From a virus, in IMG/VR virus record IMGVR_UViG_3300045120_000483, positions 40,882 to 104,881 of that record: a DNA stretch of 64,000 nucleotides, one strand, 5' to 3'. A program made the translations under genes and the position numbers. Positions 40,326 to 55,180 of this stretch are shown one piece after another. Below the pieces are notes generated by a model. That model was not told where the DNA came from. It ran no database searches and worked only from the letters and a program-made list of their open reading frames with translations. Every line of letters begins with the position of its first letter. Positions within the stretch are counted from its first letter, which is position 1.

Positions 40326-40688
40326 ATGCGTAATCAAATTAAATTAAAAGAATACAATCGACAACATTATTTGAAAATTCGGGTTTATCGTCGTGATGAA
40401 GTATTGGACCGTCAGCGTTTTATTAGAGGCAGAGTTAGGGAACTTAAAGTTGAACTTGGGTGTTCGCTTTGTGGATACAATAAATGTGCCAGGGCTCTCC
40501 AATTTCATCATTTAAGTGGAAAAGATGAAAATGTAGCAAGAATGGCGGCTCAAGGAAGATCGATGAAGAGAATTCTTGAAGAGATAGATAAGTGTGTTTG
40601 TGTATGTGCTAATTGTCATGCTGAATTACATGATGAAAAAGAGAAAAATAAAGCTCCGAAAGCTAACTTAGTAGAAGCGCCAGTCTGA
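40326..40688 (+). mobile_element. HNH endonuclease (putative homing endonuclease)
   Basis: CSLCGY..ALQFHH..EIDKC..VCANCHAELH; CATAAATA upstream. Confidence 0.85.
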
Positions 40689-40728
40689 AGAATTGGATGA
40701 GTGGGGGCGGAACCTACACGGGGCACCA
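40653..40728 (+). tRNA. tRNA-Phe(GAA)
   Basis: loop CTGAAGA; atypical T loop GCGGAAC; ACCA. Confidence 0.8.
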
Positions 40729-40831: not shown

Positions 40832-40903
40832 TGTCCGATGTAGCTTAAGCGTAAAGCAGACCTCCAAGGGAGGATCGTTGAGGGTTCAAGCCCCTCCCGG
40901 GCA
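40832..40903 (+). ncRNA. degenerate tRNA-like RNA
   Basis: TGTCCG/CGGGCA, same D arm as 40733 element, T arm GAGGG-TTCAAGC-CCCTC, 3-nt anticodon-position loop, no CCA. Confidence 0.55.
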
Positions 40904-43206: not shown

Positions 43207-43282
43207 GCTTCACTAGCCCAGCGGTAGAGGCAGCAGATTTAAATCCTGTTAAGGCCGGGTCCGAATCCCGGGTGAAGCACCA
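43207..43282 (+). tRNA. tRNA-Leu(TAA), short variable loop
   Basis: loop TTTAAAT, 76 nt, ACCA. Confidence 0.8.
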
Positions 43283-43288
43283 TTTAAT

Positions 43289-43364
43289 GGCTCTTTAGAC
43301 AAACCGGCATAGTCGCTTCCCTCAAAAAGAAGAGTTCTGGATTCGAATTCCAGGAGAGCTACCA
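43289..43364 (+). tRNA. tRNA-Leu(CAA), short variable loop
   Basis: loop CTCAAAA, 76 nt, ACCA. Confidence 0.8.
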
Positions 43365-43410: not shown

Positions 43411-43552
43411 TGGATGGGAAGCGCGTTGTGTTTTCGTCTTTCAACAAAAGCGGTCCCGTCCATTCTTGTTCTTAATTGTGGAATACCTTGCTGTTCAAGG
43501 GCTTATGCAAGGGATAGACTTTGTAAGAAGGCGGTATTCCACAGTTAAGAAC
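43411..43552 (+). ncRNA. two long hairpin RNAs
   Basis: TGGATGGGA/TCCCGTCCA; 21-bp TGTTCTTAATTGTGGAATACC/GGTATTCCACAGTTAAGAACA. Confidence 0.5.
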
Positions 43553-43646
43553 ATGGTGTTCCTGGCTGGCTTAATCTAAGCTTCCCACAAGTCGCTTAGA
43601 ACGTTTTGTGGAACGTAAGGAAGGGTTCGAATCTCTTCGACACCAT
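43553..43646 (+). ncRNA. tRNA-like RNA with elongated arm bearing a Leu(TAG)-type loop
   Basis: TGGTGTT/GACACCA, GCTT/AAGC, CCACAAG.CG-CTTAGAA-CG.TTTGTGG, GTTCGAATC T loop. Confidence 0.6.
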
Positions 43647-44195: not shown

Positions 44196-44270
44196 GCATC
44201 TTTAGCTCAGAGGAAGAGTGTCGCATCGACATTGCGAAGGTCCGGATATCGTAATTCCGAAGATGTACCA
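44196..44270 (+). tRNA. tRNA-Val(GAC)
   Basis: loop TCGACAT (C33), T loop ATCGTAA, ACCA. Confidence 0.75.
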
Positions 44271-45231: not shown

Positions 45232-45260
45232 TTGACATTCCTTATAATATAAAGTATCAT
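45232..45260 (+). promoter_or_regulatory. sigma70-like promoter (near-leaderless HD gene)
   Basis: TTGACA-N17-TATCAT. Confidence 0.65.
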
Positions 45261-45267
45261 TATTGGA

Positions 45268-45825
45268 ATGAATAGAGATTTTACCAGAATCAACGATGCC
45301 TGTATGTACGCCGGTCTGGCCCATGCATCCATTGGGCAGGTACGTAAGTACAGTAAAGAGTCCTATATCGTTCATCCCATGCGGGTTTGCCGCCTTCTTG
45401 ATGAAGTGGGGGAAACCGATGATGTTCTTATTGGCGCTCTTCTTCATGATGTGGTAGAAGATACGCCGATTACGTTGGCGGAAATTCAGGCCAAATTTGG
45501 GATGGAAATTGCCAAATATGTGGAAGGGATGACAGATGTCTCTAAACCTGAGGATGGTAACAGAGCCGTTCGTAAAACGATTGATAGGGAGCATTCTTGG
45601 GAAGCGTGTGGAGAATCCCAGACGATCAAGTGTGCGGACCTTATCGACAACACAGAGGACATTACTTCCCACGATAAAGATTTCTCTCAGGTTTACCTCC
45701 GGGAAAAGAGACTACTTCTTCCGGGTCTGACCAAAGCCAATCCAGCCCTTATTCAAAAGGCCTGGGAGACATTGGAAGCCGCTGAAATCAAAATTTTTGG
45801 AATTATTCAAGGAGAAAGAACATGA
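45268..45825 (+). CDS. HD-domain small alarmone hydrolase ((p)ppGpp hydrolase, Mesh1/SpoT-like)
   Basis: AH..GQVRKY..YIVHP..ALLHDVVEDT..IKCADLIDN. Confidence 0.9.
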   Translation: MNRDFTRINDACMYAGLAHASIGQVRKYSKESYIVHPMRVCRLLDEVGETDDVLIGALLHDVVEDTPITLAEIQAKFGMEIAKYVEGMTDVSKPEDGNRAVRKTIDREHSWEACGESQTIKCADLIDNTEDITSHDKDFSQVYLREKRLLLPGLTKANPALIQKAWETLEAAEIKIFGIIQGERT

Positions 45826-46055: not shown

Positions 46056-46307
46056 ATGACATTGAGAGTCAAAGCTACAGAGGCCGAAGCTAAGAAAGCT
46101 GAGTTAGCGTTTCCCTGCCTGATGAGGTCCAAGAGCGATGGTTGGATTATGTTAGTTACGGGGGTAGAGAATAATATTGTTAGTGGTATGGTTGTTTCCG
46201 ATCCTAATAAGTATTGGTCTTCTCCGATCTTGAGATATTCGAATCGAATGACCGCTATTTCGACTCTTGAACCCTGGGTTGGTAAGGTAGAGTTTATTTC
46301 AGAGTAA
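46056..46307 (+). CDS. hypothetical protein
   Basis: AGGAG RBS. Confidence 0.55.
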   Translation: MTLRVKATEAEAKKAELAFPCLMRSKSDGWIMLVTGVENNIVSGMVVSDPNKYWSSPILRYSNRMTAISTLEPWVGKVEFISE

Positions 46308-46311
46308 GCCG

Positions 46312-46422
46312 GATGGTGGACAGTGAGGATGCATTCCCTGAGTGGTCAAAAGGGCCGGTCTTTTAAACCGATGCGAAAGCTACGTGGGTTCGAATCCCCC
46401 TGCATCCTCACTGTCCATTATC
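46312..46422 (+). tRNA. atypical tRNA-Lys(TTT)-like RNA (class II body, 22-bp extended acceptor helix, no CCA)
   Basis: core 46327..46408; loop CTTTTAA; GC-GAAA-GC variable arm. Confidence 0.7.
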
Positions 46423-47250
46423 ATATAATTTATAGAGGTCTTTGATTTTAAGACCGGTTTTGTTTTCTACATAACTGAAAACCTCCTGGAGGTCCGGTAG
46501 ATAAAGAATTTGGATGGGTTCTGTTACTCCTGAAAGTTTAAAGTCATCAACGGGAGATTTGAAGCCTTTGATTTCGATTAATTTTCCGTTTACCCGAAAG
46601 TCTGGGTAAAAGTTATGTTCTCTTTGAGTTATAGGATTGAAGTATAGATAAGGGGCCTTGTTTCTAGTAATGGAAATTTGGTGTTCTGTGCAAAAAATAT
46701 AGTAAGCTATTTCGTATGTGGAATTACAAAAAAATCCTTGATAGTATCCCTGTTTTCCTCTCCCCGCCCGGTGTCGAAAGCATCCAGGTTTTCCTTTTTT
46801 AGTTATGCTGATATTCTTCGCAGAAAGCGCCTTATTGCACTTAAGAGAACATGTCTTTAAACGTCGGTGTGTATATGGAAGAGGTACCTTGCATTCTTGA
46901 CATATTGAGGGAGATTGCAAATAAAGCTTTTTTGTGATTAAAGATTTTTGTTGTCCTGATATTCTAGAAATTTCCGAAAGACGTTTTTTAGTTTCTGATG
47001 AATGTTGCCACCCGCTTTCTTCTCTCTTTTTCATATTAGCTTTAGCTCCACAAGATTTAGAACAATACCGATATAAGCGACTTTTGTAGGAAATAGGATT
47101 CTGACAAAATTCACAGATTTTTGGGTTTAAAGCGTATTTTTGTTGACTACGCTCAGAAAGCCTGATACCATGGCAAGTAGGAGAACAAATTTTACTTCGC
47201 GGGTCTTGAGGGGTAAAAGGGGCTGAACAAACAAGACAAGAAATTGTCAT
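46408..47250 (-). mobile_element. PD-(D/E)XK homing endonuclease with Zn-ribbon repeats
   Basis: three CxxC..CS..C repeats; STYE..FYPDF..LIEIKG; AT-rich; in tRNA cluster. Confidence 0.8.
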
Positions 47251-47310: not shown

Positions 47311-47387
47311 GGATCAATGGCTAGACTGGCAATGCAACGGACTCTTAATCCGTCCCCATGGGGGTTCGATTCCCCCTTGATCCTCCA
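47311..47387 (+). tRNA. tRNA-Lys(CTT)
   Basis: loop CTCTTAA, TCCA. Confidence 0.85.
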
Positions 47388-51146: not shown

Positions 51147-51222
51147 GGGCCTGTAGTGATAGAAGGTAGCATTCCGCACTTGCAATGCGGGGGACACGGG
51201 GCAGTACCGTGCTGGTCCACCA
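51147..51222 (+). tRNA. tRNA-Ala(TGC), second divergent copy
   Basis: G3:U70, loop CTTGCAA, T loop GCAGTAC. Confidence 0.8.
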
Positions 51223-51248: not shown

Positions 51249-51716
51249 ATGGAAGCGTCAGAGGTTTTGAAGATTGTTGCTAACGGACTGGCCTCTCAGG
51301 GGGGCCCGGCTTATGAAAGTGGAGCGTGTCTTTATCGGGCTTCGGGAGGTCGAAAGTGTGCGGCCGGATGGATCATTACCGATGAAGAGATTATGAGGGG
51401 CGTTCGGAGTATGAATTTATCTAGCTTGAAACATGAAGGAACCCTTCCAAAGAGTTGTGAGGAACATTTTAGTCTATTAGAATTATTGCAAGAAGTTCAT
51501 GATAGTTGTGCTTTGAATTATTCATATGTTTCAGTAACAAAACCCGAACCGGATCAATTGGCTATGTGGAAGAATGTCCATGGACCATGCGGTATTGCAA
51601 CCAAACTGAGAAGGGTTGCCCGGGAAAATGATCTTGATCCGGAGATTGTGACTGAAGCGTTCAAAAATTATGGAGGGGTCACGGCCGATTCCGATGATGC
51701 TAGAAATAGCGAATAA
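51249..51716 (+). CDS. hypothetical protein
   Basis: L..QG.PA...CLYR..GRKCAAG...LQEVHD. Confidence 0.75.
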   Translation: MEASEVLKIVANGLASQGGPAYESGACLYRASGGRKCAAGWIITDEEIMRGVRSMNLSSLKHEGTLPKSCEEHFSLLELLQEVHDSCALNYSYVSVTKPEPDQLAMWKNVHGPCGIATKLRRVARENDLDPEIVTEAFKNYGGVTADSDDARNSE

Positions 51717-53629: not shown

Positions 53630-53708
53630 ACCCTTGTATGCCGCCACACTTCTAATGTGGAGAAAGCTAACTGGAAACATGCGGGTTCGAATCCTGCCAA
53701 GGGTGCCA
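53630..53708 (+). tRNA. D-armless tRNA-Arg(TCT)
   Basis: ACCCTTG/CAAGGGT-GCCA; CCACA-CTTCTAA-TGTGG; canonical T arm; 20-nt variable region. Confidence 0.75.
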
Positions 53709-55106: not shown

Positions 55107-55180
55107 GCTACCGTAGCCCAAAAGTAAGGCGTCTGACTGTGAATCAGGATAATTAGGGGCGGTACCTAACGGTAGTACCA
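55107..55180 (+). tRNA. tRNA-His(GTG), alphaproteobacterial type (no G-1, A73)
   Basis: loop CTGTGAA; ACCA; preceded by C. Confidence 0.85.

Follow-up and report, generated by a model that had tools for sequence, protein, structure and literature searches.

The tRNA island and the gene order around tRNA-Lys(UUU)

The window, i.e. the whole stretch of 64,000 nucleotides that was analyzed (positions 40,882 to 104,881 of IMG/VR record IMGVR_UViG_3300045120_000483), forms the right-hand part (64 kb) of a contig of 104.9 kb, whose completeness is estimated at 59%. Among its genes are those of a T4-like replication module: a family B polymerase, a DnaB-like helicase, UvsW and a Rad50-like ATPase. 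A tRNA island is located at about 40-55 kb, in which 26 tRNAs were predicted by ARAGORN and several more by Rfam only. The Rfam tRNAs missed by ARAGORN under default settings lie at 44196-44267, 51147-51219, 53630-53705, 55107-55177 and 40653-40725, and some of the Rfam-only tRNAs have unusual T loops, e.g. GGCGGTACC.

One tRNA of this island, a tRNA-Lys(UUU), is enclosed in a long helix formed by its own leader and trailer, which we call the clamp. The features of the locus are the following.

45232-45260, plus strand: sigma-70-like promoter, TTGACA-17-TATCAT (11 of 12 matches), heading the HD hydrolase gene, ORF76, ORF83 and the clamped tRNA
45268-45825, plus strand: HD-domain phosphohydrolase (Pfam HD_4, PHROG 990), preceded by a strong promoter of its own and predicted to be co-transcribed with the clamped tRNA
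46056-46307, plus strand: ORF83, an orphan, ending 4 nt before the clamp
46312-46326, plus strand: 5' leader arm of the clamp (15 nt), pairing with 46408-46422, in the 19-nt gap after the ORF83 stop codon
46327-46408, plus strand: class-II-shaped tRNA-Lys(UUU), 82 nt including discriminator U46408, detected by ARAGORN, Rfam and the family model R1 (see below)
46409-46422, plus strand: 3' trailer arm of the clamp, which together with U46408 pairs with the leader; it takes the place of CCA and is antisense to the last codons of the nuclease ORF
46437-46455, plus strand: terminator-like hairpin with a T-rich tail, 15 nt past the clamp (a consensus match only)
46408-47250, minus strand: nuclease ORF of 280 aa with CxxC zinc-ribbon repeats and a PD-(D/E)XK core, antisense to the tRNA array
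47311-47387, plus strand: ordinary tRNA-Lys(CUU) with an encoded CCA, head-to-head with the start of the nuclease ORF

This layout of promoter, operon and terminator places the clamped tRNA at the 3' end of an mRNA, with antisense RNA of the nuclease gene beyond it. No homologue of ORF83 was found among 5.8 billion proteins.

Anatomy of the clamped tRNA-Lys(UUU)

ARAGORN predicted a tRNA-Lys(ttt) at 46327-46409. The score of this tRNA against the Rfam model RF00005 is 37.8 bits, above the gathering score of 29 and among the lowest Rfam scores of the tRNAs in the island. The tRNA consists of a 7-bp acceptor stem (GGATGCA/TGCATCC), a class-II-style D arm, the anticodon loop CTTTTAA with the anticodon ttt (the U34-U35-U36 of lysine identity), a variable region of 12 nt (T-GC-GAAA-GC-TAC) and the T loop TTCGAAT. 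The anticodon loop, the GC-GAAA-GC arm and the T loop had been pointed out in the original prediction and can all be read directly from the sequence; the T stem contains a U.C mismatch (U50.C64), and the pair 27:43 is C.A, both of which recur in relatives. The description of the arm as Ser/Leu-type needs a small correction, as the arm is short and looks more Tyr-like than Ser/Leu-like.

The gene does not encode CCA. The sequence T-CAC follows C46407, whereas 23 of the 25 other ARAGORN tRNAs of the window encode N-CCA, in agreement with what had been noted about this tRNA and its neighbours. The discriminator is U73 and thus differs from A73, the discriminator rule for E. coli tRNA-Lys identity and for recognition by E. 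coli LysRS. Both the GGAU start and U73 are common to the clamped tRNA and the ordinary tRNA-Lys(CUU) of the same phage.

At normal thresholds, the clamped tRNA is the sole tRNA(UUU) of the entire 104.9-kb contig, so that its proposed uniqueness within the window extends to all of the available sequence. A second tRNA(UUU) candidate at 51292-51390 was rejected; it is a low-threshold ARAGORN call inside an ORF, and neither covariance model sees it. The codon AAA is used 32.6 times per 1000 codons, and the clamped tRNA is its only decoder on the contig.

Among the leucine tRNAs of the island, tRNA-Leu(UAA) and tRNA-Leu(CAA), at 43207-43282 and 43289-43364, are both 73 nt long without CCA and lack the long variable arm that is usual for bacterial tRNA-Leu. 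Short leucine tRNAs are also frequent in other phage arrays. In the window phage the leucine tRNAs are thus short-armed and the lysine tRNA is long-armed, the reverse of the usual pattern.

A family of tRNA-Lys(UUU) genes with a long variable arm

In bacterial tRNAs, a long variable arm is described in textbooks as reserved for Leu, Ser and Tyr. A degenerate pattern built on the anticodon loop, variable arm and T arm detected the same arm sequence in other IMG/VR contigs (loci L003/L004 and L011), where it belongs to 81-nt tRNA(UUU) genes located in dense arrays and having ordinary flanks. With a looser pattern, in which CTTTTAA is followed 18-24 nt later by GGTTCRAATCC, at least 62 unique class-II-shaped tRNA(UUU) genes of 79-90 nt were found. 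Their variable arm of 11-17 nt has a short stem and usually a tetraloop, and they have a D arm of the class-II type, the CUUUUAA loop, 7/5 acceptor/T geometry and either U73 or A73. The window gene shares the defining traits, i.e. a variable region of at least 11 nt with a stem, the CUUUUAA loop and 7/5 geometry. The variable stems of the members differ in sequence while their pairing is kept, and compensatory changes can be observed in 18 of the 20 pairs of the family cloverleaf.

A family covariance model (R1) was built from 59 members, with the window gene left out. The window gene matches this model with 73.8 bits (E about 1e-22) over its full length (1-84), and the match ends exactly at 46327 and 46408; for comparison, the scores of the training members range from 75 to 91 bits, and the second-best tRNA of the window reaches 50.3. 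All of the seemingly aberrant features of the window gene recur in the family, namely C27.A43, U50.C64 and the three nucleotides that are left unpaired ahead of the D stem. Among the matches listed, U73 occurs in 22 of 62 members, the other members have ordinary flanks and encode CCA as is customary in their array, and the combination A39-C40-C41 is found in the window tRNA only.

A comparable pattern was used for 185,579 prokaryote species (one genome each), and 15 of the 80 matches proved to be real. In 12 of these 15, further tRNA genes lie in the same locus, and several of these loci are dense arrays of the prophage or mobile kind with 12-26 tRNAs. Since the matches in cellular genomes are few and mostly accompanied by further tRNA genes, the family is essentially phage-borne. 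It appears to be widespread in phage tRNA arrays and to lack a description in the literature, as full-text searches did not find a paper on a long-armed phage tRNA-Lys(UUU) family.

As for the origin of the family, scoring its members against Lys, Tyr, Ser and Leu profile sets gave a mixed result, and a BLAST search with one member matched phage tRNA-Tyr, which bears on a possible derivation in which the anticodon of a Ser(GCU), Tyr or Ser body was changed. Against such a derivation counts the observation that the long-armed Asn and Thr tRNAs described below keep the acceptor ends specific for their isotypes.

The original prediction had also considered an allo-tRNA-like species in need of special processing. 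The latter part stands, as the clamp and the missing CCA imply non-standard maturation. The likeness to allo-tRNAs is limited to a long variable arm on an anticodon other than Ser, Leu or Tyr: allo-tRNAs reportedly have acceptor/T stems of 8/4 or 9/3, whereas the window tRNA, with its 7-bp acceptor stem and 5-bp T stem, and its family have the canonical 7/5, as given by both ARAGORN and the covariance-model alignments. The window tRNA was therefore not assigned to the allo-tRNAs.

The long variable arm and defence nucleases

Well-formed class-II-shaped tRNAs of other kinds, namely Thr(UGU), Thr(CGU), Asn(GUU), Lys(CUU), Ile(UAU), Arg(UCU), Trp and Cys, also occur in the IMG/VR arrays (loci L014-L127). 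Arm length was counted in the fetched arrays, with tRNAs of 79 nt or more taken as long and with Leu, Ser, Tyr and the selected Lys(UUU) tRNAs left out. Long forms make up 16 of the 71 Thr(UGU), Asn(GUU) and Thr(CGU) tRNAs vs. 22 of the 552 remaining tRNAs (odds ratio 7.0, p = 5e-7), in a sample biased by the choice of loci via Lys(UUU) and by the relatedness of the phages. In E. coli, these three isoacceptors and tRNA-Lys(UUU) are the ones cut by the PARIS nuclease AriB (PMC12409363). The cut is made between positions 40 and 41, in the anticodon-stem strand that leads into the variable region. The enrichment of long arms in the isoacceptors cut by AriB suggests that the arm may hinder AriB-like nucleases and thereby shield phage tRNAs, an idea that the bias of the sample keeps at the level of a suggestion. 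In that respect, the proposal of a nuclease-resistant species was right in spirit as far as the arm is concerned, given that the long forms concentrate in Lys(UUU), Thr(UGU) and Asn(GUU).

The tRNA-Lys(UUU) encoded by phage T5 is known to escape AriB (PMC11464382; PMC12409363), and its escape is brought about by the changes U39A and A41C (PMC12409363). Like the T5 tRNA, the window tRNA is a phage-encoded tRNA-Lys(UUU) with A39 and C41, the changes that block AriB. In the published work, the T5 escape is explained solely by the two changes in the stem, and PMC12409363 makes no use of the word "variable".

The A-C-C at positions 39-41 also bears on the proposal that the clamped tRNA is a non-chargeable decoy or sponge, whose lysine anticodon arm would occupy or inhibit nucleases of the PrrC or AriB type. 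The missing CCA and the sealed acceptor end fit a decoy, and it has been suggested that over-expressed viral tRNAs might inhibit AriB (PMC12409363). However, A-C-C is the non-substrate combination of the T5 tRNA-Lys, which makes the window tRNA a poor bait, and a stoichiometric bait would probably be a weak counter to a catalytic nuclease. Moreover, the tRNA body is intact, the other family members have normal ends, and clamps are not specific for lysine, being found also on Asp and Gln tRNAs (see below). The decoy is therefore unsupported, and we regard it as a most improbable explanation.

The 22-bp leader-trailer helix

The segments 46312-46333 and 46401-46422 form an inverted repeat of 22 nt with 20 Watson-Crick and two G.U pairs. 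The acceptor helix is thereby unbroken over 22 bp, about two helical turns, with 15 pairs added to the 7-bp stem. The helix is present in both the minimum-free-energy and the centroid fold (z = -4.85), and none of 200 shuffled sequences folds as well; the 22-bp acceptor stem that had been proposed is thus corroborated by both the repeat and the predicted fold. Further copies of the clamp arms were not found in the window, where the arms are unique.

Both non-Watson-Crick positions of the clamp are G.U in plus-strand RNA and C.A on the minus strand. Another long helix of the tRNA island, at 43467-43553, is formed by arms of 21 nt whose only imperfect pair is a U.G on the plus strand; it encloses 45 nt without an Rfam match (fold z = -4.97) and may be another processing stalk. 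In the two helices taken together, the imperfect positions are G.U on the plus strand in three of three cases, which is modest evidence that the helices matter as plus-strand RNA.

The antisense nuclease ORF

The stop codon of the nuclease ORF is complementary to 46408-46410, and the 3' arm of the clamp contains the four final codons of the ORF (D-N-G-Q). The ORF has no Pfam family match. Fourteen homologues at 34-47% identity were found, and E180, P216-D217-F218 and E226-I227-K228-G229 are invariant in 14-15 homologues, which corresponds to the catalytic PD-(D/E)XK signature. The homologues contain repeated CxxC...CSxxC zinc-ribbon modules, and one of them carries PF18780, the Pfam "homing endonuclease associated repeat". 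The best PDB profile matches, which are weak, are T7 endonuclease I and Bax1, both PD-(D/E)XK nucleases. A relative with 33% identity (L002:2992-3741) is also located antisense between tRNA genes, in the array of another phage, which suggests that nucleases of this family are dedicated to tRNA islands. The Pfam repeat, the PDB matches and the antisense location of the relative together favour a homing-type nuclease.

Members of this family normally stop 0-7 residues past a conserved LYD/E motif, so that the window ORF ends at a natural place, and the 3' arm of the clamp holds only the conserved Asp codon and the non-conserved tail of the ORF. The 3' strand of the helix had been described as the end of an antisense homing-endonuclease ORF. 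The overlap is real and comprises the last four codons and the stop codon; the homing identity is putative, "homing endonuclease" being a reasonable label for what, judged by its sequence, is a homing-endonuclease-like protein.

A known enzyme offers a partial parallel. SegB is a GIY-YIG enzyme, whereas the window ORF has a PD-(D/E)XK core and zinc-ribbon repeats, and homing is putative here. Like the window ORF, the SegB gene is a nuclease gene inside a T4-like tRNA island, SegB being a free-standing homing endonuclease of the T4/T6 tRNA cluster (PMC13096335).

Clamped tRNAs in other phage tRNA arrays

Pairing beyond the acceptor stem was measured for 949 ARAGORN tRNAs from the window and all fetched phage loci. 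In 946 of them the extension amounts to 0-3 pairs, and in the remaining three to 13-15 pairs. The expectation for 15 consecutive extra pairs by chance is about 4e-7 per tRNA (0.375^15), or about 4e-4 in the set of 949 tRNAs; the clamps are thus rare and non-random. Apart from the window tRNA-Lys, the following two tRNAs, both located in unrelated jumbo-phage arrays, are clamped.

L017:1513-1587: clamped tRNA-Asp, 14 extra bp, without CCA
L102:4617-4691, minus strand: clamped tRNA-Gln, 13 extra bp, without CCA

The total helices of the three clamped tRNAs (Lys, Asp and Gln) are 22, 21 and 20 bp long. CCA is encoded by none of the three, yet by most of the tRNAs in their arrays. As the anticodons differ, the clamp is not tied to lysine. 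The clamped tRNA-Gln of L102 is located just downstream of a consensus promoter. In L098, a relative of L102, a tRNA-Gln (2858-2932) behind the same promoter sequence is unclamped and has CCA, and clamps therefore look sporadic rather than conserved.

The original prediction had named absence of the extension from relatives as an observation that would speak against it, and the extension is indeed absent from the other long-armed family members, the sole relatives available. Near relatives of the window phage were found neither in INPHARED (near and distant modes) nor in IMG/VR (by DNA and by three proteins), and a search of JGI metagenomes with two exact patterns matched only an unrelated tRNA-Ala. 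Alleles lacking the endonuclease gene were likewise not found in the INPHARED, IMG/VR and JGI metagenome searches. The clamp, together with the loss of CCA beside a nuclease gene, is a rare, lineage-specific addition and not a trait of the family.

Two possible sources of such a structure were tested and rejected. A transposon or MITE with terminal repeats is not consistent with the lack of target-site duplications, which are missing from all three clamped tRNAs, or with the uniqueness of the arms in the window. Nor is the tRNA a replacement nested in a broken older copy, because no truncated tRNA was found within 1 kb even with filters off.

If the helix served the minus strand, it would form a 3' end structure or terminator of the nuclease mRNA or take part in sense-antisense control, and the tRNA would merely be enclosed. 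The position of the stop codon and last four codons of the ORF within the 3' arm can be read in this way, as can the antisense location of the nuclease family inside the tRNA arrays of at least two phages. On the other hand, the C.A mismatches that arise from the two wobbles make the helix weaker in minus-strand RNA, no T-run follows on the minus strand, and no nuclease-type ORF adjoins the clamped tRNAs of L017 and L102. We consider a minus-strand role very unlikely.

A more serious alternative, although still rather unlikely in our view, is that the clamp is a functionless mutational by-product and the tRNA is poorly processed or dead, i.e. a young pseudogene. According to this explanation, the 7-bp inverted repeat of the acceptor stem would have been a quasi-palindrome that was lengthened in a single step. 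Template switching or repair at the adjacent nuclease gene would have placed a copy of one flank on the opposite side and erased CCA. Several of the observations described above are compatible with such an origin: the absence of CCA from all three clamped tRNAs in mostly CCA-encoding arrays, the unclamped tRNA behind the same promoter in L098, the occurrence of clamps on the unrelated anticodons Lys, Asp and Gln, and the low generic tRNA score of 37.8 bits. In addition, the sequence of one clamp arm doubles as the end of the coding region of a nuclease gene of the mobile type, conserved Asp codon included. However, the tRNA has kept a complete cloverleaf whose score differs by only a few bits from those of bona fide members of the family, and a pseudogene would leave the phage without its only decoder of AAA on the contig. 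Both changes that followed the duplication keep G.U pairing on the plus strand, for which the probability is about 1 in 16 to 1 in 36 if the changes were neutral, and neither a broken older copy nor a target-site duplication is present nearby.

Proposed maturation of the clamped tRNA

According to the reading that we favour, the clamped tRNA is functional and serves as a lysine tRNA after it has been freed from an operon mRNA by a double-strand cut, trimmed and supplied with CCA. We put the probability of this reading at about even. The tRNA would be transcribed at the 3' end of a small operon consisting of the promoter at 45232, the HD hydrolase gene, two small ORFs and the tRNA. A double-strand-specific host endonuclease of the RNase III type would then cut the stalk, whereby the tRNA would be separated both from the mRNA and from the nuclease-gene antisense RNA. 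The ends would subsequently be trimmed by RNase P and a 3' nuclease, and the host CCA-adding enzyme would supply the CCA that is missing from the gene. The mature tRNA would be charged with lysine, and its long variable arm together with A39 and C41 would plausibly keep it usable when defence nucleases cut the host tRNA-Lys. The anatomy, the family membership, the operon layout and the finding that clamps are rare and non-random are observations, from which we infer the RNase III cleavage, CCA addition, lysine charging and nuclease resistance that make up this scheme.

Several results count for a working tRNA, namely the intact body, the family match of 73.8 bits, the recurrence of its mismatches in the family, the GGAU start and U73 shared with tRNA-Lys(CUU), and the position as the only AAA decoder. 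The operon layout, the G.U pairs on the plus strand and the connection of long arms with defence nucleases also count for the favoured reading. A perfect duplex of two helical turns is a classic RNase III substrate, about 20-22 bp being the minimal substrate size. The clamp has the continuous flank duplex of about 20 bp or longer that characterizes an RNase III stalk (22 bp), and the agreement of the three clamp helices, at 20-22 bp, with the minimal substrate size counts for the RNase III route. T4 itself has CCA-less tRNA genes, which are matured by host RNase BN and the CCA-adding enzyme, and in bacterial rRNA operons leader-trailer processing stalks are cut by RNase III. E. coli RNase III has been reported to take part in T4 tRNA maturation (PMC4810235). 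Like the stalks of rRNA operons, the clamp has paired flanks, a duplex of about two turns and a longer transcript around it, and the phage studied here is T4-like. It differs from them in that no unpaired nucleotide separates it from the acceptor stem of the one tRNA that it encloses, and cleavage would here be a prediction from the structure.

Other results count against the favoured reading. For bacterial RNase P, base pairing of the leader acts as an anti-determinant. The paired leader of the clamped tRNA, the absence of CCA in an otherwise CCA-encoding array and the sporadic occurrence of clamps all weigh against normal function. The same holds for the lack of a gene for RNase III or for a CCA-adding enzyme on the 105-kb contig. 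The G.U evidence comes from three positions only, and a near relative that could reveal selection on the clamp was not found in the searched collections; both points also count against the favoured reading.

A related possibility, which we consider improbable, is that the clamp is a deliberate pro-tRNA device that would hide the acceptor end from defence enzymes until a double-strand RNA cut controlled by the phage or by stress released the tRNA, or that would keep it as an uncharged sponge. The defence enzymes in question attack the 3' ends or anticodon arms of tRNAs. If this were true, the clamp and the long arm would together make up a two-layer anti-defence tRNA.

Whatever the role of the clamp, a lysine tRNA with a long variable arm departs from the textbook restriction of such arms to Leu, Ser and Tyr tRNAs, and the protection of phage tRNAs against defence nucleases by an extra arm is a testable idea. 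If the clamped tRNA is not functional, the locus would show a homing-type gene disabling its neighbour. If it is functional, as in the reading that we favour, it would document an RNase III-type route to a bacterial-type tRNA. The clamp raises the questions of how a fully end-paired, CCA-less tRNA is matured in bacteria and whether mobile nuclease genes may be the makers of clamps.
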